A DNA stretch of 64,000 bases from an uncultured bacterium (GTDB lineage: Bacteria > Fermentibacterota > Fermentibacteria > Fermentibacterales > JCC-6), in assembly GCA_964386635.1 (NCBI GenBank), contig CAYLRO010000003.1, forward strand, positions 13,345-77,344, read 5' to 3'. The notes under the pieces were generated by a model. It was not told the DNA's origin and made no database searches. It saw only the letters and a program-made list of their open reading frames with translations. Made by a program: the position numbers and the translations under genes. This document shows, in pieces, positions 7,716 to 45,486 of this stretch (positions are counted from its first letter, which is position 1; each line of letters starts with the position of its first letter).

Positions 7716-7738
7716 AGATTTAACCCGGGGCGGTTTCT

Positions 7739-27386: not shown

Positions 27387-29807
27387 TCAATGTGATACTT
27401 CATGGTTGTACTGCTCTGTTATCTGCCGGTGAAGTCTGATGTTCAGGAAAGAGTTCCTCAACTCAGGGTCATCAATATTGTCGGCTTCCTTCATAAGAGA
27501 GGTGAATGAATCCCTGAGGAGGGTTTTTCTCTTCAGAAGCAATTTCTTCCGATTGGTTGCAGAAGGGATCTCAGCAATTTTCCCGTAGAGTTTTGACAAC
27601 CCAAAAAGTGTTTTAGTGAGATTGTTTACTTCAGGCACAGCGTGATTTTCCACTTCCCTGGCCTGTTCAAGTGCTGCAGCGATGTTCTCAGGTCCGGTTC
27701 CTTCTTCAAGAATAACAGAGGCAAGGTCCAGCCGTGCAGTTACCGTTCTGGTTTCTGCACCGATCCCCTCAAGGCTGGAAACAGCTTCCAGGAGACGTTC
27801 CCTGGCTTCTTCTGTGCTGCCGGAGTTCATGAGGGAATGACCAATAAGGGCAAGATTCTCACCTACTCCCTCAATGTCCTCGATTTCCCTGCTTATGGAC
27901 AGGGCTTCTCTGTAGAGAGGAAGTGCTTCTTCGTGCAATTGTTTCTCGCTGAGTATATCAGCCAGATTTGTCTTCACTATGCTTTCCGTATATCTGTCTC
28001 CGATTTCCACGGCAATCTTCAGAGCATTGCTGTATTGCTCACGGGCTTTTGTGAACTGACCGATATACCTGTGCATGTTGCCGGCACCAACCAGGGTTCT
28101 GCACTGCCCCTGCCTGTTCCCCATTCTGATATTCAGTTCCAGTGCCTTTTCTGTATGCTCCAGTGAAACCTGAAATCTGCCCATGTTTCGAGTGACTATA
28201 CCCAGATTCATGTGCATGTTTGCCTGCCCCCCGGGGTCGCCCAGGCGGTTGAAAAGATTAAGTGAGCTGGTGTAGTACTCCAGTGCACCGGTGTTGTCGC
28301 CCATTGACCAGTGTGTAAGCCCCATGTTGCACAATATATTGGCTTTCAGGTGCCCCATTGCGAACACTCCGGGAACATTCAGCGCTTTCTCCATGTATTC
28401 AAGTGCGCTTTCGTATTTTCCTGTGGTGCAGTCGATAAGGCCCAGATTTGCAAGTGCCTTGGCCTCTTCTGAAAGATCATTGAGTGTTCTGCCAAGCATG
28501 AGACATCGGTGAAAGGCGCTTCTGGCACCCTTGAAGTCGGACTGTCTCCACTTAATGTTTCCCATAGCACTCAGGGCCAGGAGAAGGTTTTTACGGTGGC
28601 AGTTATCTCTGGCTGTTTCATACACCTGGGTGAATTCGTTCTCTGCAAGCTGAAGATTTCCTGAATCACTGTAGGTGTAACCGAGAAGAAGTCTTGCCTG
28701 TATCAGTGCATTGTCCTGTTTCAGAGCCTGTTCAAGCAGAGTTCTTGTTTTCTCAGAGTCCCTGATGTTCTGCCGGTTTTCGTAAAGGTTCTTAGCCTGC
28801 AGGTAGAGGGTGTAGGCTTGTGAAGGACCGGAACTGTCTTCCGGAATACTGGTGCTTAAGGCGGGGTCCACACCCATGATCTTAAGAAGGCTGTCTGCCA
28901 GTTTTCCTTTTATGGAAGGGAGTTCGAACCAGCTGTCAGTCCAATTGTCAGCCCATGCAAGCCTTTTCTGGTGAAGATCGTGCAGCTCAACCGAGAGCTG
29001 GAACATTTCCTCTTTTCTCCACAGTGATCCCCTGACGATGAAGCGCACATTGAGCCTTTCGGCGATTTCCGGTCCGGCATTCACCACCTGTCTGATCTTT
29101 ATTACATCACTGAGAGGGGTTACCACAATCCCTCCTGCAGAAGCCAGATCGGAAACAAGGTCGGAAGTTATTCCGTAGGCATAAAAGTCGTCTCCGCCGT
29201 TCCCCAGGTTCTCCAGAGGAAGCACTGCCACTGAGGGTATCTTCTCTTTCAGTGTAACCACACCGTCTGACACGGCTTTCCCGGCGGAAGTGAAGGGAAG
29301 AGGATGTCTGGATGAGCCCTTCAGATTGTAAAGGTTAACAAGCCTGCCAAGCCCCTTTAGCTTACTCAGTCCCAGGTTATGGGCGGCGGGTTTTCTCCCG
29401 GCCCCGCAGTTCCGGAGAAGTTCGCCTGAAATGCATACTCCACCGGGAGGAGCCAGGTTTTCAAGTCTTGATGCTACATTCACCGTGTCTCCGAGAACAT
29501 CTCCCGGCTGTAGCAGAACATTGCCCCAGTGTATCCCCACACGGAGTCTGAAAGGTTTTTCCGACAGTCTGCTCTGAAGTTCCCCTGCGCAGCGGATTGC
29601 AGACCGGGGCAGGATGAAAGTAGAGAGGGTGCCGTCGCCCATCTCCTTTATAAGTGAACCGTTGTGTTTTTTCAGAAGCGGCGACAGCGTATCCCGGAGG
29701 ATGGAGATCATTCTGAGAGCTTCCTCCTCGTTTTGCTCCATGAAGGAAGTGAATCCCACGATATCGGTGAACATTACAGCAAGTTTTTTTCGAGAATCCG
29801 GGCTCAA
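27387..29807 (-). CDS. Class III adenylate/guanylate cyclase with C-terminal TPR repeats
   Basis: The N-terminal CHD-like domain has motifs such as MFTDIVGFTSFME, EMGDGTLSTF, LRVGIHWGNV and GDTVNVASRLE. The remaining ~500 aa are TPR-like repeats. Confidence 0.8.
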   Translation of the reverse strand: MSPDSRKKLAVMFTDIVGFTSFMEQNEEEALRMISILRDTLSPLLKKHNGSLIKEMGDGTLSTFILPRSAIRCAGELQSRLSEKPFRLRVGIHWGNVLLQPGDVLGDTVNVASRLENLAPPGGVCISGELLRNCGAGRKPAAHNLGLSKLKGLGRLVNLYNLKGSSRHPLPFTSAGKAVSDGVVTLKEKIPSVAVLPLENLGNGGDDFYAYGITSDLVSDLASAGGIVVTPLSDVIKIRQVVNAGPEIAERLNVRFIVRGSLWRKEEMFQLSVELHDLHQKRLAWADNWTDSWFELPSIKGKLADSLLKIMGVDPALSTSIPEDSSGPSQAYTLYLQAKNLYENRQNIRDSEKTRTLLEQALKQDNALIQARLLLGYTYSDSGNLQLAENEFTQVYETARDNCHRKNLLLALSAMGNIKWRQSDFKGARSAFHRCLMLGRTLNDLSEEAKALANLGLIDCTTGKYESALEYMEKALNVPGVFAMGHLKANILCNMGLTHWSMGDNTGALEYYTSSLNLFNRLGDPGGQANMHMNLGIVTRNMGRFQVSLEHTEKALELNIRMGNRQGQCRTLVGAGNMHRYIGQFTKAREQYSNALKIAVEIGDRYTESIVKTNLADILSEKQLHEEALPLYREALSISREIEDIEGVGENLALIGHSLMNSGSTEEARERLLEAVSSLEGIGAETRTVTARLDLASVILEEGTGPENIAAALEQAREVENHAVPEVNNLTKTLFGLSKLYGKIAEIPSATNRKKLLLKRKTLLRDSFTSLMKEADNIDDPELRNSFLNIRLHRQITEQYNHEVSH

Positions 29808-32181: not shown

Positions 32182-33116
32182 TGAGAAGAGTACTTTATTC
32201 ATTTCCAATACTGATGTTCCTTGCCGGCTGCGGAGGAACAGGTGTGTCGATCAACAGCGAGTTCCCTGCATTCTATTTTCAGGACATCACCACCGGGGCG
32301 ATTCCAACTTCCTGCTGTTTCCTGGGAGGAAACGGGGATGTCCTTGCAGGAGCAGGCACATCCCTTTATTTCGTTGACAGTGACGACGGCTATGTAAGAG
32401 CCGAGGTTTCCCTGGGGGTCCCGATAACCGATGTGGAAGGCTCACCGGAAGGCGGGTACGGGCTGGCACTTTCAGGAGACATACTTTTCGTTGTATCAAA
32501 TGACATATACACAGTGCATTCTCAGATACCGCTTTCCCATTATGGCAGTTTCATTATTCCCAGGCCGTATTCCACATCGATCTTCGTTCTCTGTGCCGAT
32601 GGTACACTTGTGAAGATAGAAACAGTGGGCTGGACAATTACGAAATCAGGCCAGACAGATGCAACTGATCCAGTGGCAGCAGTTATGGGAACAAGTGGCG
32701 ATTACATCTTTGCAGCAGACAGTGATGGAACGGTTTACAAGATATCAACTTCAGACTTTTCAACAGTTGCACAGACAACTGTTGATGGCGGGGTGAACGG
32801 AATGTGTTCAACACCGCTGGGCGAGGTTTTTGTTTCTCCAGAGGGAGAAAGCCAGGTATGGGCCATCGACTGCGGAACCGGCCAGCACTCCAGGTCATTT
32901 GATCTTCCCGGTGAACCAACTGCTCTTGCCTGTACAGGCAGCGGAAAGTACCTCTATGCAACATTGCCGGAACAGGGGTTTGCAGTGGTGAATGTGGCGG
33001 ACAACACAACTGAAGCGATTATCGGAAGTTACGGAGATCCTTCGGACATGGCAATCAACACACAGACTACCAGAGCCGCTCTCTGCTGTATCGACCTGTA
33101 TATACTGCAGAACTAG
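32181..33116 (+). CDS. Hypothetical lipoprotein (beta-propeller-like repeats)
   Basis: The lipobox is MRRVLYSFPILMFLAGCGG. The rest is a repeated beta-rich sequence. Confidence 0.55.
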   Translation: MRRVLYSFPILMFLAGCGGTGVSINSEFPAFYFQDITTGAIPTSCCFLGGNGDVLAGAGTSLYFVDSDDGYVRAEVSLGVPITDVEGSPEGGYGLALSGDILFVVSNDIYTVHSQIPLSHYGSFIIPRPYSTSIFVLCADGTLVKIETVGWTITKSGQTDATDPVAAVMGTSGDYIFAADSDGTVYKISTSDFSTVAQTTVDGGVNGMCSTPLGEVFVSPEGESQVWAIDCGTGQHSRSFDLPGEPTALACTGSGKYLYATLPEQGFAVVNVADNTTEAIIGSYGDPSDMAINTQTTRAALCCIDLYILQN

Positions 33117-33883
33117 AGGAGAATGCTCAGATAGCCCTGCCAGAGAGATTCGCCGAAGAACAGTGATATCAATGCTCCCAGTGCCATGAACGGGCCGAAG
33201 GGTATGGGAACACTCTTTTTCCTTTTTCGGAACACCATAAGTGCTCCGCCCACCACTGCTCCAGTTATAAAAGCTGCAAAGAAAGCAATCACAGTGTGCC
33301 CCGGTCCCAGAAATGCTCCCGTACACGCTGCCAGTTTCACGTCACCCCAGCCCATACCACCCTGGAACTCGTCCTCTTCATCTTCGAATCCTTCCGGAGC
33401 TTCAGTTCGTATCTTCTGCTGTTTCAGATAGATCGATGCTCCTGTTCGAATAAGAAGGAAGAAGAGAAATCCTCCGGCTGCGCCTATGAGGGAACTGCGA
33501 ATACCGATACCCCCTGGAAGCAGTGAGAGACCGATGCCTGCCACAGCTCCTCCGATGCTCACCTCGTCCAGAACGATGAACTGCTCGGTATCAGTTCTTA
33601 CCACCACAACCATAAGTGAAATCAGAACGGCATAAGTTATGAAAACCAGGGAATAACCTGTGTGCACCGCTGCCAGGAAGAAGAGAACACCTGTAACAAA
33701 CTCTGTTACCGGATAACGGGCTGATATGTGCATCCCGCAGTTCCTGCACCTGCCTCTGAGAAAGAGATAGCTGAGAACAGGGATGTTGTCTTTCGGCTCT
33801 ATTTCCTTTTTGCATCCAGGACATGCACTGGGTGGTGAGATAATGGACTTCCCAAGGGGAACCCGCCAGCTTACTACATTCAA
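33113..33883 (-). CDS. pilD: Prepilin (type IV leader) peptidase, A24 family. The 5' end is probably upstream of the annotated TTG, near 33946.
   Basis: The protein has (F)LNVVSWRVP, then the zinc domain CPGCKKEI...RGRCRNCG, then TM helices with catalytic Asp-containing regions. The conserved TM1 (SIDSIFGIFAGLLGLCIGSF) is encoded in frame at 33884-33946 but no ATG/GTG/TTG precedes it. Confidence 0.75.
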   Translation of the reverse strand: MNVVSWRVPLGKSIISPPSACPGCKKEIEPKDNIPVLSYLFLRGRCRNCGMHISARYPVTEFVTGVLFFLAAVHTGYSLVFITYAVLISLMVVVVRTDTEQFIVLDEVSIGGAVAGIGLSLLPGGIGIRSSLIGAAGGFLFFLLIRTGASIYLKQQKIRTEAPEGFEDEEDEFQGGMGWGDVKLAACTGAFLGPGHTVIAFFAAFITGAVVGGALMVFRKRKKSVPIPFGPFMALGALISLFFGESLWQGYLSILL

Positions 33884-33974
33884 AAAACTGCCGATGCACA
33901 GGCCCAGAAGCCCGGCAAAGATGCCGAAGATACTGTCAATAGATATGTTGCCGACCTGCCGTTTCTGTTAATAC

Positions 33975-34004
33975 TTGCCACTTTCTCTACTCAAAGAGTA
34001 TAAT
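33975..34004 (+). promoter_or_regulatory. Putative sigma70 promoter (TTGCCA-18-TATAAT) for the porin-like gene
   Basis: TTGCCA lies at 33975-33980 and a perfect TATAAT at 33999-34004. The start codon at 34067 has an AAAGGGGTG RBS. Confidence 0.35.
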
Positions 34005-34066
34005 TCCGCTTGACACTGACCGGAAGGTACAGAAACACCGGTCGAAAAACCAAAAGGGGTGTATTA

Positions 34067-35119
34067 ATGAAAAAGGCTATCGCGATTCTTGCAGTTCTTG
34101 CTTGCTTTGCATTTGCAGGTGAAGTGCTCAGTGGCGGTTCCGATATGATCAAATTCAAGGGTTACGCAACTTTCCGCTGGACAATGTTCGGTGAGGAAGA
34201 CTACAACCCTGGTTCAACAATGAGCACCTACAGCTACATCCAGTGGTGCCCCAGGCTCAATGAGTATGTTGACGGAGCAATCTCCGCAACAGTTACAACT
34301 CCAGGTGATGCTGATATCAGGGTTGACTGTGCAAACCTTAACCTCCACTTCACCGAGAACTTCACCCTTACAGGTGGACAGTTCAAGGTTCCCTTCGGTT
34401 ATGCTTACACACGTTCCGGCGGCAGCATGTACTTTGGTGACAGATCTGCTCTCGTTGACGGTAACAATTTTGACGATTTTGACGATTTTGGCGGCAAAGA
34501 CATATCTACAATGCTTACAGCAGAGTTCGCTCCTGTAACTGTTGATCTTGCTCTTTCCAACGGTAATGGTATGAACGCTTCCGCTGACGACCAGGACATG
34601 AACAAGCAGTTCACTGCAAGAGTTGTTGCAGATCCTACAGACTGGCTCGAAATCGGTGGTTCAGTTGCTATGATCGGTTATGCAGATCAGGATTCCACAG
34701 AAGTTTTGGACGAATCCTGGAATGCTACCGGCATGGACTTCTTTGCAGTTGCCAACTATCCTGTATCTCCCACAGGCGACCTTGTGTTTGTGGGCGAGTA
34801 CATGATGCTCGGTGCCCAGGATAATTACGATGATGCGGAAGACGGTTCAAGAATGAGCGTTATGGCCGGATACGATGTTGATCTTGACGGCGACGTTTTT
34901 CTTGCCATCATGCCTGCACTTCGTTACGACATGGTTACACCTATTGATGTTACCGGCGAAGCAGTGGACAATGGCATCAGCCGTATCGACTTCTGCCTGA
35001 ACATTGATCTCTTCAGCCAGTACAACACACTTCAGATCGGTGCCCGTAACTACGGCTCCGAGAATGAGAATGTTGATGGACATACTGACATGTATGCCAA
35101 CTGGAGAATGAACTTCTAA
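34067..35119 (+). CDS. Outer-membrane beta-barrel porin-like protein
   Basis: The signal peptide is MKKAIAILAVLACFAFAGEV. Amphipathic beta-strand segments alternate through the sequence, and the C-terminus ends in Phe (...ANWRMNF). The ORF track's 34010 start precedes the RBS and signal peptide. Confidence 0.6.
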   Translation: MKKAIAILAVLACFAFAGEVLSGGSDMIKFKGYATFRWTMFGEEDYNPGSTMSTYSYIQWCPRLNEYVDGAISATVTTPGDADIRVDCANLNLHFTENFTLTGGQFKVPFGYAYTRSGGSMYFGDRSALVDGNNFDDFDDFGGKDISTMLTAEFAPVTVDLALSNGNGMNASADDQDMNKQFTARVVADPTDWLEIGGSVAMIGYADQDSTEVLDESWNATGMDFFAVANYPVSPTGDLVFVGEYMMLGAQDNYDDAEDGSRMSVMAGYDVDLDGDVFLAIMPALRYDMVTPIDVTGEAVDNGISRIDFCLNIDLFSQYNTLQIGARNYGSENENVDGHTDMYANWRMNF

Positions 35120-35138
35120 AGAAGTTATTCAATAAAAC

Positions 35139-35172
35139 AGCCGGCCTCCTTCACAGGGGGCCGGTTTTTTTG
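35139..35172 (+). terminator. Intrinsic terminator after the porin gene
   Basis: The stem AGCCGGCC...GGCCGGTT is followed by a T7 run (35165-35171). Confidence 0.55.
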
Positions 35173-35255
35173 TGGCTCCAGTTTCCCCGTTTCCTTATTC
35201 TGCTTATAATGTCTCTGTATACGCAGATACTTATTTTTTATCAGGGAGGGATGAT

Positions 35256-36401
35256 ATGCCGGAAGAGAATGTTGTACCAGAGGGAACAGCTCCTGAGGAA
35301 GTTGTGCCCGAAGCAGCCCAGACGGAGGCGGAACAGCCTGAAGAACCTGCTTCAACAGCACAGACACACAACAGAGAGCTTGGCTGCCAGAACTGCGGTG
35401 CACCGCTTGAGTACATGGAGGGCGAGAGTGTAATAACCTGCCCCTACTGCGGTACTACAACCATGCTTGCAGGCTATGACAACATCGTAAAGATTGACAG
35501 CCATTCCATGCTTCCCATGAATGTTAACGAGAATGATGCCATCAGTGCCCTGCTCACATGGCTTTCAAAGGGATTCCACCGGTCGAAGAAGAATATTCAG
35601 ACTGCCAAAGTCGAGTCCATCAGGGGGCTCATGCTGCCGTACTGGATAGTGAAGAGCAATGCTTCCACTGCATGGCGGGGGAAGAAAAAGAGAACAAGAA
35701 CTGTGGGAACCGGTGACAAGAAGAAGACCGAGACCTGGTGGGAGCCTGTAAGCGGCAGATTCAGCGAGGACTACACCTGGCCTGAGTACGCCCGTGAAGA
35801 CCCTGATGAATTCTGGGGCGTTGAGAACATCAAGCCCGGGAAAAAGTCTCTCTTTCCAGACTGGGGCAAATTCTGGCTCAGATTCGGAGGAGGCAGGGAA
35901 AGCCCGAACCGGAACCTTCTTGACGGACAGCTGCCTTTTGACATTCAGGAAGTCAAGAAGTGCGGTATGGCTGATAACATGGTTAACGGTCAGATAACTC
36001 AGGAAAGAGCAGAGTCCAATGCAAAGGGCAACATAAAGGAACATCAGGCTAAGAAGGCTGACAAAAAAGCGGATGTTCTTTCAGACGTGGACACAGTTGT
36101 TAATGTTAACAAGGTTGATCTTGTGTACGTCCCGATGTGGGAGATGAAGTACAGCCTGAACGGTAAAAGCTACAATGCCCTTGTAGACGGCACAAAGAAG
36201 GAAGTTCTTTCAGCTGAGTATCCTGTGAGTACAAAGGCCCGAGTAACAATATTCGATATCTTCCTGGGCATACCTGCTATCATCGCAGGAGCAATCGGTT
36301 TTGCCGGAGACGGATCCAAAGTTGCAACAATAATCTTCTTCGTCCTTCTGGTTCTGATGCTTGCATACAGCCTTCTCAAAGGTCTTTCCGGAAAGAGTTG
36401 A
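35256..36401 (+). CDS. Hypothetical tail-anchored protein with N-terminal acidic/Pro-rich segment and zinc ribbon
   Basis: The ATG at 35256 has a GGGAGGG RBS 5 nt upstream. The ORF track's 35172 start lies inside the terminator. The zinc ribbon is CQNCGAPLEYMEGESVITCPYCG. A Lys-rich central region is followed by a single C-terminal TM helix (IFLGIPAIIAGAIGFAG...FFVLLVLMLAY). Confidence 0.6.
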   Translation: MPEENVVPEGTAPEEVVPEAAQTEAEQPEEPASTAQTHNRELGCQNCGAPLEYMEGESVITCPYCGTTTMLAGYDNIVKIDSHSMLPMNVNENDAISALLTWLSKGFHRSKKNIQTAKVESIRGLMLPYWIVKSNASTAWRGKKKRTRTVGTGDKKKTETWWEPVSGRFSEDYTWPEYAREDPDEFWGVENIKPGKKSLFPDWGKFWLRFGGGRESPNRNLLDGQLPFDIQEVKKCGMADNMVNGQITQERAESNAKGNIKEHQAKKADKKADVLSDVDTVVNVNKVDLVYVPMWEMKYSLNGKSYNALVDGTKKEVLSAEYPVSTKARVTIFDIFLGIPAIIAGAIGFAGDGSKVATIIFFVLLVLMLAYSLLKGLSGKS

Positions 36402-36805
36402 TGACTGACATTCCTGAAGCTGCCCTCTCGTGGACCTGGCTCCGGGCTGGAGGTCCCGGAGGGCAGCACCAGAACAAAACAGAGACAGCAGTTCAGTTGA
36501 GGTACAGCATACCCCTGGGAGAATTGAACCGGGAAACAGCTGAAAGACTAAGGCGACTGGCAGGAAGCAGATTGAACTCTGCTGACGAGATAATCATTGA
36601 ATGCCGCGAACACCGAAGCAGAGAAATGAACAGGCGGGTTGCCCTTGAAAAACTGGAGCTTCTTATTGAGGAAGCTGAGAAACGGGACATACCCAGAAAG
36701 AAGACTCGTCCAACAAGAGCATCATCTGCCAGGAGAGTTAAATTGAAAAAAGAGAATTCCCAGAGAAAGAAATTGAGAAGAAAACCTGAGGTTCATGATG
36801 ACTGA
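36398..36805 (+). CDS. arfB: Alternative ribosome-rescue factor ArfB (peptidyl-tRNA hydrolase, RF-like GGQ protein)
   Basis: The GGQ motif is GGPGGQHQNKTETAVQLRY. The 135-aa protein has a basic C-terminal tail. An ATGA overlap links it to the upstream gene. Confidence 0.85.
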   Translation: MMTDIPEAALSWTWLRAGGPGGQHQNKTETAVQLRYSIPLGELNRETAERLRRLAGSRLNSADEIIIECREHRSREMNRRVALEKLELLIEEAEKRDIPRKKTRPTRASSARRVKLKKENSQRKKLRRKPEVHDD

Positions 36806-38255
36806 CCGTGTAAAACTGCTTGTTCTCACAATAGTTTCTCTTGGTACAAGGCTGTTCATGCTGGGAGGAAAAAGCCTGTGGATAGACGAGTGTCTGGCCT
36901 GGGGTGCGACGCGGATGGGCTGGATGGAGATGTTCAGATCTGTTGCTTCAGGAACACCCCATCCTCCGGTTGCTTTCGCTCTGATAAAGCTGTCTGCAAT
37001 TATTGCAGGTGACGGCGAATTCGGCCTCAGATTCCTTATTGCTGTTTTCACTGCGTCTGCTGTTGTTCCTTTGTACAGGCTGGCTGCCAGAAGAACCACT
37101 GCTCGCGGAGGTTTCTATGCCGGTCTTCTCTGGGCTCTCTCACCGTTTGCTGTTTCCCTGGGGCAGGAATGCTGGGTTTATGGAATAAATGCAGCCCTCT
37201 CTTTCTGGTTTGCCGATGTTGCCGATCTGGCATGGAGGGGATCCCGGAAGGCTTATATAACAGCATTCATTCTTGGTATTGCGGGTATTCTCACACAGCA
37301 TATTTTTGTTATTACCGTTGCAGCTTCAGCTGTACTCTATTTTTCAATTGACGCCGGGAAGAGGATCTCGATACTGAAATTTATAACAGTTCCTCTCTTT
37401 CTTGCTGCAGCATACCTGCCTGTGTACCTGTATTTCTCTTCTCAGTTTGCTGCAAGAACAGAGAGACTCGTATCTGCAGGTTTTTATGCCGGCACATTCA
37501 GACTGTTTTCAACCAGGCCATTATCAGAATTGTTCAGGGTATTTGCAGGGGGACTGTTGCCTGAGATATCGCAGAATATCCTGGAAAGACCCAGAATGTT
37601 TACTGCGTATTTAGTTAATGCGGCAGCTGTTATCTTCATGGGAATTGTTCCGCTTTTCCGCTTCAAAAAATGGAACATGCCTGGTCTCAGATTCCTCTGG
37701 ATTATCCTTCTTCTTCCATTTCTGCTCTTTATAAATGACGATCCAACCATCAGACATCTGTCTCTGATCTGGCTTGTCATCTCCATTTCATCAGCTGCTG
37801 TTTTTTCCAGATACAGATACTCTGGACCTGCAGCAGCAGTCTTTATGCTGATTGCTCTGGTTCCTTACTACAGAATGGATGTTTTTCCGTATCACAGAAG
37901 TAACTGGCATCAAGGAGTGGAAACCATAGAAGCAATGGCTGCTCCAGGTGACGGTGTTGTTATTTTCGGGGGAAAGTCAACTGCTTTTGCCTGGGAATTC
38001 TATTCTGAGACCGGCATGGACTATTTTGCTCCTGGCGGAGAAACTCCATTTGCCGTTGACAGTGAGAGAAGCAGAGTGAACAGGGTTGCTTTTATGGACA
38101 GTGTTTTTGCAACAAGAGAGAATCGACGAATTTGGGTTCTGATAGACGTGTGGGGTTCTCCTGAAATGGAAAGCATAAAGGGGGACAGGACCGTGTCGTT
38201 CTCTTCACAGGCTGGAGATCACATGCTGATGATACTTCTGGAAGGAAAGCACTAA
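36795..38255 (+). CDS. GT-C glycosyltransferase, ArnT/PMT (GT39/GT83)-like
   Basis: The first extracytoplasmic loop has a DE motif (LWIDECLAWG). The 486-aa protein has about 11 TM helices and a C-terminal soluble domain. Confidence 0.65.
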   Translation: MMTDRVKLLVLTIVSLGTRLFMLGGKSLWIDECLAWGATRMGWMEMFRSVASGTPHPPVAFALIKLSAIIAGDGEFGLRFLIAVFTASAVVPLYRLAARRTTARGGFYAGLLWALSPFAVSLGQECWVYGINAALSFWFADVADLAWRGSRKAYITAFILGIAGILTQHIFVITVAASAVLYFSIDAGKRISILKFITVPLFLAAAYLPVYLYFSSQFAARTERLVSAGFYAGTFRLFSTRPLSELFRVFAGGLLPEISQNILERPRMFTAYLVNAAAVIFMGIVPLFRFKKWNMPGLRFLWIILLLPFLLFINDDPTIRHLSLIWLVISISSAAVFSRYRYSGPAAAVFMLIALVPYYRMDVFPYHRSNWHQGVETIEAMAAPGDGVVIFGGKSTAFAWEFYSETGMDYFAPGGETPFAVDSERSRVNRVAFMDSVFATRENRRIWVLIDVWGSPEMESIKGDRTVSFSSQAGDHMLMILLEGKH

Positions 38256-38353
38256 TCGCAACATGTTGTTGCAAATTTGCCATTCGGTATGTCATTTGAT
38301 TAGCTTTCAACATCACATTTATAAAGAAGACATCCAGTGAGAGGGGGATTGGC

Positions 38354-41350
38354 TTGAAGCTATCCGTAACCGCAGTTACAAGACCGGTTGCCGTAACGGT
38401 TATCTCCATCGTAGCTGCCGTTCTCGGGGCAATAGCAGTTTTACAGATGCCTGTAGACCTGTTACCCTCCGTTGAATACCCCAGAATTACCATTGAAACA
38501 AGATATCCTTCATCCAGCCCATACGAGGTCGAGAGGCTTGTTACTGATCCTCTTGAAGAGGCGCTGGCAGGTGTCAGGGGTCTGCGCTCCTATTCTTCCA
38601 GATCCTACGGAGACATGAGCCGGATCACCCTTGAGTTCGACTGGGGTGCCAATATGGACTACACCCGGCTTGAGGTTAGAGAGAAACTGGATGTTGCCAG
38701 CTGGTCTCTTCCTGATGCCGCAGATCGTCCTACCATTGTTGATTACGACCCCTCCTCCAGACCGTTCATGGAGATCCTGCTTACAATGGACGGCGGATGG
38801 ACTGATATCAGTGACTTTTCAAGACGGGTGATCGCCACCCGTATCGAGCAGGTTGACGGAGTTGCCGCATGCGAGATAGACGGTGAAGCGGAGCCTGCAG
38901 TTTATGTTCGTCTTCGCGACGGGGTTATTGAAGAACTGGGAATTGACCCTGCATCAATAGCCGCTGCTCTCAGTGGAGCCAATGCAGTTTCTCCAGGAGG
39001 CCAGGTCCGTGATGGAGAGAAGGAATACTTCCTCTCGCTTCAGGGCGAGTTCGAGTCTCTGGATGATGTCCGCAACACAGTTGTGGCTTCACTTGATGGA
39101 ACCCCTCTGCTTCTGGATGCAATCGCTGATGTATACATTTCAGAAAAACCGCCATCTGAATGGGCAAGCTACAATGGGGAGAGGGCCATTATCCTGAGGA
39201 TCAGGAAGATGGCTGAGTCGAATACAGTTGAAGTGGCAGGCCTTGTTAAGGATGTGGTTGAGGAGCTGAATCTTGCCAATGTTAATGTTCAGCTGCAGGT
39301 GATTCAGAACGATGCGGAATTCATAGAGGAATCCATTGGCGGGGTTGTTGAGGCACTTATTCTGGGTGCCTTCCTTGCATTCGGTGTTCTCTTCTTCTTT
39401 TTGAGAGACTGGAAGAGTCCACTGGTTCTTGGATTATCACTTCCCCTGAGCATTGCCCTTGCACTGTTCTTCCTCTATCTGGCCGGTGTAACAGTGAATA
39501 TCATGTCCCTTGGCGGACTGGCTCTGGGCACAGGTCTTCTTGTTGACAACGCCGTGGTGGTTCTTGAAGCGATCTATCGCAGGAGAGAACTGGGAGACAG
39601 CAGGAGAGATGCAGCTACCAGGGGAACAGCCGAGGTGGGACCTGCCATTGTTGCCAGCACTCTGACCACGATCATTGTGTTTTTCCCGGTGGTTTACATG
39701 GAGGGCATAACCAGTCAGCTTTTCAGGGATCAGGCTCTGGCAGTGGGTTCTGCTCTGCTGGCCAGTCTTCTTGTTGCAGTGACGGTGATACCTGCGCTTG
39801 CTGCCAGAATAGGCAGAACACAGAACTCTAAGGACGTAACTTCCGGATTGAAAGCCCGTTATGGTCGTAGCATGGAGAGAATTCTGGGAAGAAGAAAAAG
39901 GGTTCTTGCTTTTACTCTGCTGATCACTGTTCTGGCTTTTTTCGGTGCATCGAAACTTCCGATGCAGCTGCTTCCTGATACTCCTGCTGATCAGCTTGAA
40001 ATGACTTTCAGTGCCCCTGAAGGCACTTCCATGGAACAACTTGTGGATCTTTCCTCAATGTTGAGCGAGCTTGCAGATCTGTCAGGCAGCCTGTGGACAA
40101 GCGGCAGAGTCGGCGTCCGGGCAGAGGAGGGCGTTGATGCTCTTTCAGTTGCTGAGTTTTCAACACCGTCTCAGGCAGCGAACGCCATATTGCCCATCAG
40201 AGATGCATGGAGTGATGCCTTCAGTTTCCCCCTTCAGGTTGGTCCAAGAGGAACTCTCCTGGGAGAAATACTCGGCGGCGGAAGCGGTTTCACCATATAC
40301 CTTGAGGGCGAGAGCATTGAGACTGATCTTCAGGCAGCTCAGGCTGTTGCTGAACTGTCCCATTCAAGAATAGACAATGTCATAAGCGCTGATGTTAACT
40401 TTCTCCCCGGCAAGCCTGAGATAGTTGTAAGACCCGACGGCGAGCTTCTTAATCTTCTCGGTATTACAGCCGATGATGTTGCTGATTACCTGGAGAGCCT
40501 TTCAAGGGGCATTGTGGCTACTACTTATTACCGGCAGGATGAGAAGGTCGATGTAATGCTTCTTGCAGGAAGCGGTGAAGGTATTTCCGTGGATTCCCTG
40601 TTCCAGAGATCTGTTGGTATTGCCGGGACACTTATCCAGGTGGACAGGATTGTGGAAACATTCATTCGTCAGACTCCGGGGTTCATCGAGCATTATCAGG
40701 GTAACAGAGCTGTAGGAGTTAGTATACAGAGCAGCGGCACCAACATGGCCGGTATTTCAGAGGAGATAACCGCCCTTGCTGATTCAGCCCTTGCAGGAGA
40801 GCCGGTGAAGCTGAGAACAGGAGCCGAAATAGAGGAAATGGACAGAACCACCTCAAGCCTTATTCTGGCTGCCATTCTGGCTATAGCTCTTGTTTATGTT
40901 CTTCTGGCAGTACAGTTTGAATCATTTATTGAGCCTTTCATTATCATGATTACAGTGCCTCTGGGGATTATCGGCGTTGTTCTCGGCCTGACACTGTTCG
41001 GCCAGAGCTGGAATGCTTTGTCCGGGATCGGTCTTGTAATTCTCTCGGGAATTGTTGTTAACGACGGTATTCTGCTTGTTGAGCGGATAACCCAGCTCAG
41101 AAAGCAGGGTCTGCCTGTTAGACAGGCTGTTATTGATGCAGGCAGGGACAGATTCAGACCTGTTCTCATGACTACGGTCACAACCATCTTAGGCCTTCTT
41201 CCCATGGCTGTTGGTCTTGGAGAAGGTGCATCGCTGAGGCAGCCGCTGGCTATTGCTGTGATCTCAGGAATTACGGTGGCAACTCTGCTTACCCTTGTGG
41301 TGGTTCCGGTTCTCTATGCAGTACTTGTGGGAGATAAGGTTACGCGATGA
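38354..41350 (+). CDS. RND efflux transporter permease subunit (AcrB/MdtB-like)
   Basis: The 998-aa protein has 12 TM segments and two large periplasmic loops. The TTG start has a GAGGGGG RBS. Confidence 0.9.
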   Translation: MKLSVTAVTRPVAVTVISIVAAVLGAIAVLQMPVDLLPSVEYPRITIETRYPSSSPYEVERLVTDPLEEALAGVRGLRSYSSRSYGDMSRITLEFDWGANMDYTRLEVREKLDVASWSLPDAADRPTIVDYDPSSRPFMEILLTMDGGWTDISDFSRRVIATRIEQVDGVAACEIDGEAEPAVYVRLRDGVIEELGIDPASIAAALSGANAVSPGGQVRDGEKEYFLSLQGEFESLDDVRNTVVASLDGTPLLLDAIADVYISEKPPSEWASYNGERAIILRIRKMAESNTVEVAGLVKDVVEELNLANVNVQLQVIQNDAEFIEESIGGVVEALILGAFLAFGVLFFFLRDWKSPLVLGLSLPLSIALALFFLYLAGVTVNIMSLGGLALGTGLLVDNAVVVLEAIYRRRELGDSRRDAATRGTAEVGPAIVASTLTTIIVFFPVVYMEGITSQLFRDQALAVGSALLASLLVAVTVIPALAARIGRTQNSKDVTSGLKARYGRSMERILGRRKRVLAFTLLITVLAFFGASKLPMQLLPDTPADQLEMTFSAPEGTSMEQLVDLSSMLSELADLSGSLWTSGRVGVRAEEGVDALSVAEFSTPSQAANAILPIRDAWSDAFSFPLQVGPRGTLLGEILGGGSGFTIYLEGESIETDLQAAQAVAELSHSRIDNVISADVNFLPGKPEIVVRPDGELLNLLGITADDVADYLESLSRGIVATTYYRQDEKVDVMLLAGSGEGISVDSLFQRSVGIAGTLIQVDRIVETFIRQTPGFIEHYQGNRAVGVSIQSSGTNMAGISEEITALADSALAGEPVKLRTGAEIEEMDRTTSSLILAAILAIALVYVLLAVQFESFIEPFIIMITVPLGIIGVVLGLTLFGQSWNALSGIGLVILSGIVVNDGILLVERITQLRKQGLPVRQAVIDAGRDRFRPVLMTTVTTILGLLPMAVGLGEGASLRQPLAIAVISGITVATLLTLVVVPVLYAVLVGDKVTR

Positions 41351-44300
41351 TAGACAAGCTGCTTAAAAGACCTCGTGGAACGGCTATAATCTACATCGCA
41401 CTTCTTGGTCTGGCTGCAGTTAGCCTTTTCAGGATACCTATTGAGGGATCTCCTGATACAACCCTCCCGGAGCTTAATGTCACCACAGGGTGGTACGGTG
41501 CTGATCCCGAGGCTGTATGCGAACAGCTTACCCGACCTATAGAGGAGGCTGCAAGGCAACTGAGAGATGTTCGGGAGGTGTCATCCCGGTCCAGCGAGGG
41601 AAGAAGCGTTGTTACGGTTTCCTTTGATCAGGGAGCCGATATGGATGTTGCTTCCATGGAACTCACCGAGAGAATTTCCATGATAAGGGATGACCTGCCC
41701 GGCAATGCCGGGGCCAGTACGGTTACACAGGCCATTCCAAGGGAAATGGAGAGTGAGGGATTTCTTATCTATGCCATCACAGGAGCAGAGAAATCCATTC
41801 TGAAGAATCTTGCAGAAGACGTTGTTGTTCCGGCACTTGAACGGATAGACGGTGTCAGTTCGGTGATTGTTGAAGGGCTGGGCAGCGAAGAGGTGCTGAT
41901 TGATGTTGATATGGAGGCCCTGCGGTCTCTTGATCTCACTCTTGCCCAGGTTGTTTACTCCATACAGAACGGTATCGTGGACAGGAATGTGGGTGTTGCC
42001 ACTGATACTACAGGTCTGCAGGCTGTTCTCAGAGTTTCCACGGTCCCTATGTCGCTCTGGGAGATGGAACAGCTTGTTGTAAAGCAGACCGGCACTGATT
42101 TCGTAACCCTGGATGATATCTCCCACGGCATCTATCAGAGCTATTCAGATAACTCGGGAGTGATATTCAGGTACAACGGTCTTGACCAGATCACAATGGA
42201 GCTTGACAGATCACCCGGGTCGAATGCTGTTCGGGTTGCGGCAGTGGTACGGGAAGAGGTTCAGAGAATTCAGGCAGGCTTACCTCAAGAAGTAGAGCTT
42301 AATCTGATCGAAGATGGAACCGAAGCCATAACTGACGACCTCAGCGCTCTTTCCTGGAGGGCTCTTGTCTCTCTGGGGCTTATCATGCTGATCCTTCTTA
42401 TCCTCAACCCCAGCCCGTTGACCACTCCTCTTATACTCAGCTCCATTTTATTCAGCAGCGCCCTGGCTGTAACAGCAGTTTTTCTTGCAGGCTACAGCAT
42501 CAATGTTCTAACACTCAGCGCCCTTGCCATTGCATTCGGTCTGCTTGTAGACGGAGCAGTTGTTGTTATGGAGGCAATCGCCTTCAGGCGGAGACAGGGG
42601 ATGAGTGCCCTTGAAGCAGCCGGAGTTGGTGCCAGAGAAGTTGCCATGCCGGTTCTTGGAGGAATTCTCACCACCCTTGTTGCCTTTGTACCCCTTCTGG
42701 CAAGCGAGGGGGTTCTCAGGATCTATTACAGACCCTTTGCTTTTACAGTTGCTGCAACACTTCTCGCTTCATACGCAGTCTGCCTTACATTCGTTCCCTC
42801 CATTGCAGGTCACTGGAGCAAGGGAAACTGGTACAGAAAAAGGAAATGGGATCAAACCCTGAGCCGACTGGTCTCCATTCTTCACCACAGACCCTGGATA
42901 CCTGTTACTGTTACTTTTCTTCTCATTGCAGGTTCTGTGTATGTGCTGCTGACCAAAGTGGAGCATGGTCAAACCTGGAATTTCGGAGGTGACAGGGATT
43001 ACCTGTATGTATCCTACGCTTTTCCTCCTGGAACTCCCCAGGAGATAGCGGATGATGTAGCCAGCGGGTTTGAAGATATAATGGTCTCCAAGGACGGAGT
43101 TCTTTCCACAAGAACCACTGTCTACGGCGAGTCCGGCGTTATCTACTGTCAGTTTGACACAGACGCTCTGCGTAATGGAACAGCACTGCAGACCGAATCA
43201 GAGGTTATAGCACTGGCTACCACTGTTGGAGGTGTCAGAAGGATATATGCTGGAGGTATCAGTCCGGAAGGGTACTGGCGAAGCACTGCCAGTGCCGGGA
43301 TGATGCAGACTGTGGAACTCAGAGGATTCGATTACGAGGGTTTGAAAACACTTGCTGTGAATCTGCAGACTCTTCTCCAGCGTCATCCGAGAGTTGAGGA
43401 AGTGGACATTAACTGGAATGCCAGATCCGTGGACAGAGAGCAGCTTGCAATTGTGTTTGACCGTATCGAGCTGGCTGACCTGGGCATCAATCCTTTCCAG
43501 CTTGTAATGGCCCTGACGTACAACATGGCTGGTGGATACGGTGCACAGGTGAGGATTGCTGATGAAACCACCGATCTCTCTTTCAGACTTGAGGGGCAGA
43601 AAGATCCTGAACTGAGTGAAATACTGGATAGCAGAATAGTCACCAGGGATGGTTTTACAAGACTTGGCGACATCATCGATATTGACACTGTGGGAGTTCA
43701 GGGAACGGTTATCCGTGAAGACGGAGAATACGTAAGAACTGTGGCTTACTCCTTTATGGGAGCGGAAAGAATGGCTGCGAGATTCAGGCATTCCCTCCTG
43801 ACAAGTCTTGAGCTTCCTTCAGGGTACAGAGTTTACGAGGACACAACATTCCTCCCTGATTGGCTTGAGGAAGAAGAAGGTATGGACATGAACCTTCTTG
43901 TGGGACTTGCAATACTCGCTGTATTTGCAGTTACAGCCATTGTGTTTGAAAGTTTTAAAGCACCGCTGTATGTCCTGGCGGTTATACCCATGGCCCTTGT
44001 TGGGGTGGCGGCAGGATTCTGGCTGTTTGACAGGATATTCAGCCCTGAGGCTTACGTTGGAAGCGTGTTTCTGGTGGGTATAGCGGTAAACAATTCAATA
44101 TTACTCATAGACAGTTTTGAAAAAAAGAACAAAACAGGAATGGATTTGCGCAAGGCGGTTGATCTTGTTGTAGAGGAAAGGCTCAGACCTATTCTTCAGA
44201 CTACGGCTACAACGGTTCTGGGGCTTCTTCCACTGGTTCTATGGCCTATCTCAAGCCAGGATCTCTGGGGAACGCTCTCCTTTACAGTTGTCTGCGGAAT

Positions 44301-44391
44301 GGTTGTCTCAACTCCGCTTGTGCTCATTACCCTGCCTGCTTTGATCCAGATCACTTCCCGGAGGAGGAAAAAACATGTTCCGGAGAATTAG
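41347..44391 (+). CDS. RND efflux transporter permease subunit (second paralogue, MdtC-like)
   Basis: The 1014-aa protein has the same architecture as the first permease. Its start overlaps the upstream stop (ATGA). Confidence 0.9.
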   Translation: MIDKLLKRPRGTAIIYIALLGLAAVSLFRIPIEGSPDTTLPELNVTTGWYGADPEAVCEQLTRPIEEAARQLRDVREVSSRSSEGRSVVTVSFDQGADMDVASMELTERISMIRDDLPGNAGASTVTQAIPREMESEGFLIYAITGAEKSILKNLAEDVVVPALERIDGVSSVIVEGLGSEEVLIDVDMEALRSLDLTLAQVVYSIQNGIVDRNVGVATDTTGLQAVLRVSTVPMSLWEMEQLVVKQTGTDFVTLDDISHGIYQSYSDNSGVIFRYNGLDQITMELDRSPGSNAVRVAAVVREEVQRIQAGLPQEVELNLIEDGTEAITDDLSALSWRALVSLGLIMLILLILNPSPLTTPLILSSILFSSALAVTAVFLAGYSINVLTLSALAIAFGLLVDGAVVVMEAIAFRRRQGMSALEAAGVGAREVAMPVLGGILTTLVAFVPLLASEGVLRIYYRPFAFTVAATLLASYAVCLTFVPSIAGHWSKGNWYRKRKWDQTLSRLVSILHHRPWIPVTVTFLLIAGSVYVLLTKVEHGQTWNFGGDRDYLYVSYAFPPGTPQEIADDVASGFEDIMVSKDGVLSTRTTVYGESGVIYCQFDTDALRNGTALQTESEVIALATTVGGVRRIYAGGISPEGYWRSTASAGMMQTVELRGFDYEGLKTLAVNLQTLLQRHPRVEEVDINWNARSVDREQLAIVFDRIELADLGINPFQLVMALTYNMAGGYGAQVRIADETTDLSFRLEGQKDPELSEILDSRIVTRDGFTRLGDIIDIDTVGVQGTVIREDGEYVRTVAYSFMGAERMAARFRHSLLTSLELPSGYRVYEDTTFLPDWLEEEEGMDMNLLVGLAILAVFAVTAIVFESFKAPLYVLAVIPMALVGVAAGFWLFDRIFSPEAYVGSVFLVGIAVNNSILLIDSFEKKNKTGMDLRKAVDLVVEERLRPILQTTATTVLGLLPLVLWPISSQDLWGTLSFTVVCGMVVSTPLVLITLPALIQITSRRRKKHVPEN

Positions 44392-45415
44392 TTTCTTTCC
44401 AGTGGTCGTTTTTGGTATTCTTCTCGCGGCTGGATGCGGCCAGGAGGAAGAATTAGAGAGGGAAACTCTTGAACCCTCTCCTCTTCCGGTATCAGCTTCT
44501 GTTGCTTCCACTGATGTTCTGTATGAGGTGATAAGCGCTACCGGCAGGGTTTCAAGCAGGAGAACCCAGACCCTCACAGCCCAGATTCAGGGCCAGGTGG
44601 TTCAGGCACCGGAGTATGAAGGCGAGGAGTATTCTGAAGGTCAGGTGATCTTCCGGGTGGCAAGCGGACAGCATGCTTCAAACCTTTCTGCTGCAAGCAG
44701 CGAGTACAGGAATGCTCAGGCCATCTATCAGTTTGAAATTGATAACTACAGGGGTGATGTGACGGATGAGGTCCGCAGTATGCTCAGACAGACTACCGGA
44801 CTGGAATCTGCATCTGCAAACCTGTCAAGTGCAAGAACCCAGTACGGGAACAGCGCAGTATCCGCAGGATTCAACGGAGTTATTTCACAGGTTACAGCTC
44901 TTGAGGGGATGACTGTCTATCCCGGTTCCCCGCTGGGAACGCTTGTAGACCCATGGAGTCTTCAGGTGGAGGTTGATCTGGATGAAAGGCAGCTGGCCAG
45001 ATGCTCAGCAGGTCTGAAGGCGTTTGTAACGGTTCCATCCCTGAATGATACAGTGCTTGTGGGTGAGGTCAGATCGGTTTCCCCGGTGATTGACCCGGGC
45101 TTCCGTTCAGGTGCGGTGGTTGTAACAGTTCCTCATGTGCCAGGTCTCCGTCCCGGAGCCACAGCAAGAACTGAAATTGTCTTTGCAGAGCATCAGGGTG
45201 CCCTGGTGATCCCTGAACAGGCTGTGCTGGTCAGAGATGATCGACCGATGGTTTTTGCCGTTGTTGATGGGCATGCGGACTGGCGTTATGTGACCCTTGG
45301 CCCGGCAGGAAGAGGAATAGTCGAAATTCTGGACGGTGTGGCAGAGGGCGAGACCGTGATTACAAGCGGCCATTACTCACTTGCCCACGATGCTCCGGTA
45401 GCAGTTGTGAACTGA
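44375..45415 (+). CDS. RND efflux periplasmic adaptor (membrane fusion protein, HlyD family) lipoprotein
   Basis: The lipobox is MFRRISFFPVVVFGILLAAGC. Coiled-coil and beta-barrel/lipoyl-like segments typical of membrane fusion proteins follow. Confidence 0.8.
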   Translation: MFRRISFFPVVVFGILLAAGCGQEEELERETLEPSPLPVSASVASTDVLYEVISATGRVSSRRTQTLTAQIQGQVVQAPEYEGEEYSEGQVIFRVASGQHASNLSAASSEYRNAQAIYQFEIDNYRGDVTDEVRSMLRQTTGLESASANLSSARTQYGNSAVSAGFNGVISQVTALEGMTVYPGSPLGTLVDPWSLQVEVDLDERQLARCSAGLKAFVTVPSLNDTVLVGEVRSVSPVIDPGFRSGAVVVTVPHVPGLRPGATARTEIVFAEHQGALVIPEQAVLVRDDRPMVFAVVDGHADWRYVTLGPAGRGIVEILDGVAEGETVITSGHYSLAHDAPVAVVN

Positions 45416-45486
45416 TTCCTGTTTTCCTGAAATAGCCAACACATACCCACCTTTTCAGCTGGAATGATAGAGGTTATCTTGTCCGA

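Follow-up and report, generated by a model that had tools for sequence, protein, structure and literature searches.

The DNA considered here (64,000 nucleotides (nt) from an uncultured member of the Fermentibacterota, referred to as the window) contains, at positions 35256-36401 of its forward strand, an open reading frame (ORF) of 381 amino acids (aa) whose product carries a zinc ribbon, an α/β domain and a C-terminal transmembrane (TM) hairpin. As set out below, this product is a remote relative of the Bacillus subtilis envelope-stress protein YdjG, also named SamG, and its gene overlaps that of the ribosome-rescue factor ArfB. In a first protein search, 78 near-full-length homologues were retrieved at E <= 1e-75, with 41-81% identity, and the 381-aa gene is therefore far beyond chance. 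The start codon at 35256 is supported by the alignment of these homologues, which begin with MPEE or MQEE; a Shine-Dalgarno sequence, GGGAGG (35244-35249), can be read 6 nt 5' of the ATG.

The gene opens a transcription unit on the forward strand. An intrinsic terminator with a 12-bp stem, 8 G-C pairs and a T-run (35139-35166) lies 3' of the preceding porin gene; it is the top terminator-like site within 33800-45600, and it marks the 5' boundary of a unit of at least three genes. The second gene is joined to the first by a TGATG stop/start overlap (36399-36403), in which the stop TGA (36399-36401) and the start ATG (36401-36403) share 1 nt. The initial annotation, which was made from the sequence alone, had rightly seen an overlap here, but had read it as ATGA at 36398-36401, where the bases are in fact TTGA. 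The second ORF (36401-36805) encodes 134 aa and is a genuine ArfB, a peptidyl-tRNA hydrolase for alternative ribosome rescue: it scores 124.3 bits against NCBIfam NF006718, above the equivalog cut-off of 100, matches Pfam RF-1 (PF00472) at 1.5e-19, and possesses the GGQ motif at residues 20-22 as well as the basic C-terminal tail KKTRPTRASSARRVKLKKENSQRKKLRRK. The third gene (36795-38255) encodes a PMT_2/GT39-like membrane glycosyltransferase (PF13231 2e-09, 38.3 bits with a cut-off of 26.1), and its ATG at 36795 overlaps the arfB stop by 11 nt.

The protein begins with an acidic, proline-rich and variable tail (residues 1-39; 35256-35372), which AlphaFold2 models as disordered, with a predicted local distance difference test (pLDDT) score below 50. 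The corresponding columns of the homologue alignment are mainly gaps and some homologues lack the tail altogether; in the hhalign comparison it stands where YdjG has its first zinc ribbon. There follows a C4 zinc ribbon of the form C44xxC47-N14-C62xxC65 (35385-35450), which aligns with the second ribbon of YdjG (C55-C77). All four cysteines are invariant throughout the superfamily, as judged from three alignments. Nevertheless, the Pfam zinc-ribbon models gave sub-threshold matches only, and scans of the whole protein with Pfam, NCBIfam and PADLOC returned nothing beyond such matches.

The α/β core (residues 68-325; 35457-36230) consists of two modules, in both of which a helix is followed by a very long β-hairpin. 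At the start of the hairpins stands a motif of the pattern hydrophobic-Pro-aromatic-Trp, which reads LPYW (127-130) in the first and VPMW (292-295) in the second. The two modules invite the idea of an internal duplication, but sequence support for this is absent (hhalign E 0.17), and the segment that aligns between them is the LPYW/VPMW motif itself. The tip of the first long hairpin (residues 138-165; 35667-35750; model strands 118-150 and 157-178) is rich in Lys, Arg and Thr, and the Lys-rich stretch WRGKKKRTRTVGTGDKKKTETWWEP is the distal end of this ~30-residue, two-stranded hairpin within a single α/β domain. An insertion at residues ~194-224 (PGKKSLFPDWGKFWLRFGGG...NLLDG; 35835-35927) is specific to the clade formed by Fermentibacterota and Myxococcota: it is conserved inside that clade, yet gapped against the broad-family profile in hhalign. 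The protein ends in a membrane hairpin of two hydrophobic helices at ~330-350 and 355-376 (36243-36383), which were recognized both in a hydropathy scan and in the AlphaFold2 model, where they are placed at 326-348 and 355-378.

These features bear out the acidic, Pro-rich N-terminus of the initial annotation and refine much of the remainder. Its zinc ribbon is present with all four cysteines, albeit with a spacing of N14 instead of CxxC-N17-CxxC; what it took for a separate Lys-rich soluble domain is the hairpin tip just described; and the supposed single C-terminal TM helix is one of a pair, so that the protein ends in a helical hairpin and not in a single tail anchor.

A further feature of the core is the tripeptide NGQ (N244-G245-Q246; 35985-35993), which precedes the long helix 249-271 and is invariant in all 43 aligned proteins from Fermentibacterota and Myxococcota. 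It does not align with conserved residues of YdjG, and it probably serves structure or binding in this clade specifically; that it resembles the GGQ of the adjacent ArfB is most likely a coincidence.

The AlphaFold2 model of the full-length protein has a pLDDT of 81 and a predicted template modeling (pTM) score of 0.72, and that of the core alone reaches 87 and 0.82. The best matches of the core model are YpeB/PepSY and cystatin-like folds. These matches are weak in score and extend over ~65-80 residues, which corresponds to one module, and the hairpins of the window protein are far longer than those of the YpeB/YpmB PepSY-type and cystatin/NTF2-like α+β folds. The likeness to PepSY is structural only, as the Pfam PepSY model (PF03413) yielded no match at E <= 1. 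Furthermore, whereas PepSY domains are usually extracytoplasmic, this domain lacks an export signal. A search of PDB sequences with the family profile produced nothing significant, and a Foldseek search of the PDB with the full-length model gave no match at E <= 0.001.

The highest-ranking Foldseek matches were β-pore-forming toxins in their pore state, which reflects the very long hairpins. Together with the TM hairpin, this raises the question as to whether the protein might be a membrane effector that forms pores or acts in abortive infection, its long β-hairpins coming together as a barrel. However, the toxin matches are not significant (E >= 0.066, TM-score ~0.1) and are artifacts of hairpin length, and the hairpins are charged and not amphipathic. 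Among the PADLOC defense models only zinc-ribbon noise was obtained, the nearest being TniQ at E 0.011. Moreover, there is one gene per locus in 60 of 60 species representatives, among which the degree of protein identity follows taxonomy. We therefore regard a pore-forming role as extremely improbable.

The relationship to YdjG came to light through distant members of the family. In two unrelated metagenome contigs, genes for SPFH proteins of the Band_7_1 type lie directly upstream of the YdjG-like genes (L068:3942-6161, with a 4-nt gap, and L067:2635-6107), and this arrangement pointed to the pspA-ydjGHI operon of B. subtilis. Of these two SPFH proteins, one bears zinc ribbons at its C-terminus, the other a GYF domain. 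The YdjG sequence used for comparison was taken from a pspA-ydjGHI locus (L071) on a metagenome contig, which was found via the published ydjG forward primer and identified as B. subtilis-type by its match to four published primer sequences; its PspA C-terminus, YdjG, YdjH (with a TPM domain) and YdjI (Band_7_1 plus zinc ribbon) agree with the published primers and with Pfam.

Against the Fermentibacterota profile, YdjG aligns in hhalign with a probability of 98.9% and an E-value of 1.4e-17 over ~255 columns (YdjG 42-312, query 30-326), so that the homology spans almost all of the soluble part and the start of the membrane segment. Against the broad-family profile the E-value is 3.3e-39, and the Fermentibacterota profile in turn matches a profile of 40 diverse members at 7e-70. 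Direct comparison of YdjG with the window protein gives a BLASTP E-value of 3e-15, with 26% identity over 125 aa, and 4.8e-12 in tblastn. The two proteins also have a common order of elements: ribbon, helix, an IPFW or LPYW strand with a long hairpin, a second helix, an LPVW or VPMW strand with its hairpin, and the TM segment. Thus the window protein has in common with the YdjG family its profile similarity, an N-terminal C4 ribbon, a YpeB-related α/β domain and a C-terminal TM anchor. In the independent description by Ravi et al. (2024), YdjG comprises two zinc ribbons, an NTF2-like domain related to YpeB, and a TM segment (PMC11237479), and the modeled fold class of the window protein agrees with that description. 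From these alignments we conclude that it is a remote, divergent, single-ribbon member of a YdjG/SamG-like family, where the initial annotation had recognized no family at all.

What is known of YdjG comes from the σW-controlled pspA-ydjGHI (samGHI) operon for envelope stress. In localization experiments, the integral membrane proteins YdjG and YdjH were each needed for the membrane foci formed by the soluble SPFH protein YdjI and by PspA; the two bind one another in two-hybrid assays, and loss of either leads to shape defects under alkaline stress (PMC8581546). In a 2026 preprint, in which the proteins were renamed SamGHI, SamG and SamH are treated as a stress-sensing membrane complex restrained by SamI (10.64898/2026.02.06.704340).

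Genes for such partners were sought by tblastn with B. subtilis PspA, YdjH and YdjI and with two other SPFH proteins as queries. Matches were found only in the two contigs L068 and L067 and in four Myxococcota loci, where relatives with 42-45% identity have a Band_7_1 gene ~3.4 kb away. The neighbors in L068 and L067 show that the SPFH link reaches past the Bacillus pspA-ydjGHI operon, and does so without an adjacent pspA. Unlike ydjG, the window gene is followed by arfB and the PMT_2 glycosyltransferase, with no pspA, TPM (ydjH) or Band_7_1 (ydjI) gene nearby, and the protein is, in its local context, a partner-less variant of the YdjG/SamG kind.

The ribbon also raises the possibility of a role in gene regulation. 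The YdjG ribbon matches the Pfam TFIIB-type model Zn_Ribbon_TF, and Popp et al. suggested for it possible DNA binding and a regulatory function (10.1101/2021.02.15.431232). In addition, a gene of the sigma-70 family (with regions 1.2, 2 and 4) stands immediately upstream, on the same strand, in four of the five Myxococcota loci (L053-L056, ~5000-6000), as would suit a membrane-held nucleic-acid-binding regulator or an anti-sigma-like factor. However, these four loci have their extended gene order in common and may equal a single observation, and no sigma factor adjoins the gene in Fermentibacterota. The ribbon of the window protein itself falls below every Pfam threshold, and the protein has no helix-turn-helix or other DNA-binding domain. 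A regulatory role is thus very unlikely.

The position of arfB was examined in 60 loci from species-representative genomes by means of tblastn and an ArfB hidden Markov model (HMM). Crude gene clustering had merged the porin with the zinc-ribbon gene and called antisense ORFs, and synteny was accordingly taken from the tblastn and HMM coordinates. The arfB gene lies directly 3' of the YdjG-like gene in only twelve loci (L001-L012), all from the Sabulitectum clade, whose proteins share 71-78% identity with that of the window; the T(G/A)ATG junction is found in 12 of 12 and, with the window, in 13 of 13. Conversely, no RF-1 domain was detected by HMM within ~6 kb in 40 of the 51 loci that have at least 420 nt of downstream sequence, nor, by HMM and tblastn, in any of 10 loci taken from other phyla. 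Adjacency to arfB is therefore not conserved across the protein family, and a YdjG-like neighbor of ArfB (YaeJ) was not seen outside this one clade. The glycosyltransferase gene (cluster c12) is likewise confined to the arfB-containing clade. The closest ArfB relatives beyond the clade are at most 51% identical, and the named ones are proteobacterial. In Ca. Sabulitectum silens (MJAN01000001.1; L003:6912-7510), the sole named species of the arfB-linked clade, arfB extends over two frames, as the HMM matches both 6912-7301 and 7088-7510. A frameshift, a pseudogene or an error in the assembly may account for the split.

A true partnership with ArfB, in which the Sabulitectum protein positions ArfB or stalled ribosomes at the membrane, for instance during co-translational insertion, would explain why the T(G/A)ATG overlap is kept in all 13 junctions and why the pair is always co-oriented behind the terminator. 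The hairpin arm is strongly basic in the clade, with a mean net charge of +4.4, and a zinc ribbon with a basic arm could bind RNA. Membrane tethering of ribosomes has a precedent in the tail-anchored, ribosome-binding proteins YqjD, ElaB and YgaM of Escherichia coli. These are small cytoplasm-facing proteins with a C-terminal membrane anchor, and the likeness is one of analogy only.

However, the adjacency is limited to one shallow clade, and the same operon bears an unrelated glycosyltransferase. Arm charge is not conserved either: across the wider family its mean is +1.9, with a range from -6 to +5, and the idea that a conserved basic arm is evidence of RNA binding was rejected on this ground. 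Nothing else connects the family with translation. Furthermore, the closest characterized relative acts in envelope stress and not in translation, and ArfB is a single-component system whose sole reported conserved neighbor is a pseudouridine synthase (Burroughs and Aravind, PMC6514570). Because arfB adjacency is restricted to one narrow lineage, nothing ties the protein to ribosome rescue, and we consider an ArfB partnership unlikely.

A more general form of the same idea would treat the YdjG-like family as a sub-membrane docking platform with lineage-specific clients, which would be SPFH proteins and PspA in Firmicutes, a paralogous partner in Planctomycetes and ArfB in the Sabulitectum lineage. 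Were this true, membrane-tethered ArfB would rescue ribosomes stalled while inserting membrane proteins; the chances of it appear slim. The paralogous partner refers to six Planctomycete-type loci (L063 at 6001-7913, L065, L066, L069, L070 and L074), where the gene 3' of the YdjG-like one encodes 312-330 aa; the two overlap by 4 nt in five of the loci, and a gap of 14 nt parts them in L069. The second gene of L063 is a paralogue from the same family (hhalign E 7.8e-30), and such tandem pairs suggest hetero-oligomers.

The simplest reading of the stop/start overlap is that it couples the expression of the two genes without implying a common function. As the initial annotation proposed, the junction is compatible with translational coupling of the YdjG-like gene and arfB, and its identification of the downstream gene as ArfB was correct. 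The proposed ribosome-associated or translation-quality-control module, on the other hand, finds no support in the distribution of the pair, in arm charge or in what is known of ArfB, and its fallback, an unrelated operon partner, is the reading favored by the evidence. It had named two kinds of observation that would speak against such a module, and these were half borne out: homologues are usually not beside arfB, and there is a match to a partly characterized family whose role, in envelope stress, is unrelated.

The flanking genes bring in another candidate function. Within the phylum, the most widely conserved neighbor of the YdjG-like gene is the porin-like gene upstream, which occupies 34010-35119 on the forward strand of the window and scores just sub-threshold against Pfam Porin_O_P (20.6 versus 20.9 bits). 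A porin is directly upstream in 23 of the 60 loci and within ~3 kb in 7 more. Farther upstream in the window is the prepilin peptidase gene pilD (33113-33883, reverse strand). Downstream, on the forward strand, are two tandem AcrB-type RND transporter genes and a gene for an HlyD-type membrane-fusion protein (38354-45415); the two RND genes overlap by 4 nt (41347-41350), the HlyD-type gene comes next, and no outer-membrane factor gene was seen in this stretch. In the window the RND genes stand beyond arfB and the glycosyltransferase gene, whereas in 7 other Fermentibacterota loci an AcrB-type RND gene directly follows the YdjG-like gene, and in several others it stays close.

Two large genes lie outside this neighborhood. 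At 45487-49536 the window encodes a 1,349-aa hybrid protein with CheR methyltransferase, PAS, HisKA/HATPase and receiver domains, and at 27387-29807 on the reverse strand a ~805-aa protein in which an N-terminal adenylate/guanylate cyclase domain is followed by long TPR and MalT-like repeats.

The recurrence of porin and RND genes, along with the membrane glycosyltransferase in the window operon, would fit an accessory or regulatory component of the adjacent porin and RND efflux machinery, that is, a phylum-specific use of a YdjG-like scaffold. Yet a strong terminator separates the porin from the gene, and many Aegiribacteria loci have unrelated genes on both flanks (cyclophilin, a response regulator with a histidine kinase, CotH kinase). 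Outside the phylum, neither RND genes nor porins are linked with the homologues, and the pattern fits gene order inherited inside one phylum. A role in efflux is for these reasons improbable. As regards the order of events, arfB and the PMT_2 glycosyltransferase gene were probably inserted downstream in one lineage; that they were placed between the YdjG-like gene and the RND genes is the simplest reading.

There remains the function to which the relationship with YdjG itself points. Homology and common architecture with B. subtilis YdjG are the reasons for proposing an adaptor function, which by this analogy is most likely. The N-terminal C4 zinc ribbon would lie in the cytoplasm, followed by the YpeB/PepSY-like α/β platform with its long β-hairpins, and the C-terminal helical hairpin would hold the protein at the inner face of the cytoplasmic membrane. 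From there it would recruit or organize a partner, either soluble or in the membrane, and its role would probably lie in the upkeep of the envelope; the ribbon and the rigid α/β platform are the likely binding surfaces. We consider it reasonably probable that the window protein is such a cytoplasm-facing, membrane-tethered adaptor of the YdjG kind, and that its position before arfB is a lineage-specific arrangement.

Several points weigh against this conclusion. The tblastn searches described above found no SPFH, TPM (YdjH-like) or PspA gene, either in the 64-kb window or at the Fermentibacterota loci, so that the defining partners of YdjG are missing locally. The low identity noted above places the protein in the family of YdjG without making it an orthologue. 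Ribbons number two in YdjG and one in the window protein, and TM helices one and two, respectively; the window protein also differs in its disordered acidic tail, which takes the place of the first ribbon, and in the ~30-residue insertion at 194-224. We infer the cytoplasmic orientation only indirectly, from the lack of an export signal or signal peptide, the cytoplasmic type of the zinc ribbon and the Lys and Arg residues that flank the TM hairpin. Finally, the strict conservation of the overlap in the clade (13 of 13) still allows for a functional tie to ArfB that is particular to the clade.

The family to which the protein belongs proved to be very large. A profile search of 1.84 billion cluster representatives (50%-identity clusters) retrieved 4,182 proteins with a limit of E <= 1e-3, and 1,281 with a limit of E <= 1e-10; most members carry a single or a double CxxC-N14-CxxC ribbon near the N-terminus and either one TM segment or two at the C-terminus. 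The members named to date belong to Fermentibacterota, Myxococcota, Planctomycetes, Silvanigrellales and Firmicutes. The named organisms among the 78 near-full-length relatives are Candidatus Fermentibacterota (Sabulitectum, Aegiribacteria, Fermentibacter and 'Hyd24-12'), while those in the broad family include Silvanigrella, Fluviispira, Pigmentibacter, many Pirellulales and Myxococcota, with the proteins all annotated as hypothetical. None of the 78 relatives has a Pfam domain, and several bear misleading labels such as 'LSD1 zinc finger' or 'RpoP'; 'PriA-like' is another mislabel in public records. Some members are ~490 aa long (P0135, P0204) and have an Arrestin_N-like domain before the ribbon (Pfam E 3e-09 in P0135). 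A literature search found nothing on a zinc-ribbon, tail-anchored family, nor on Fermentibacteria in combination with a zinc ribbon.

For ribosome rescue, the outcome is mainly negative: the arfB pairing is a shallow, lineage-specific operon arrangement and not a new rescue module. The more interesting by-product is the family itself, a large one that has neither a Pfam model nor a solved structure. In practical terms, a protein that is publicly hypothetical or mislabeled can now be annotated as a YdjG/SamG-type membrane anchor. The family is far larger than the Psp operon of Firmicutes implies, and most of its members are without SPFH, TPM or PspA partners; the function of YdjG as the anchor of an SPFH-PspA complex may thus be a single instance of a wider role as an adaptor.

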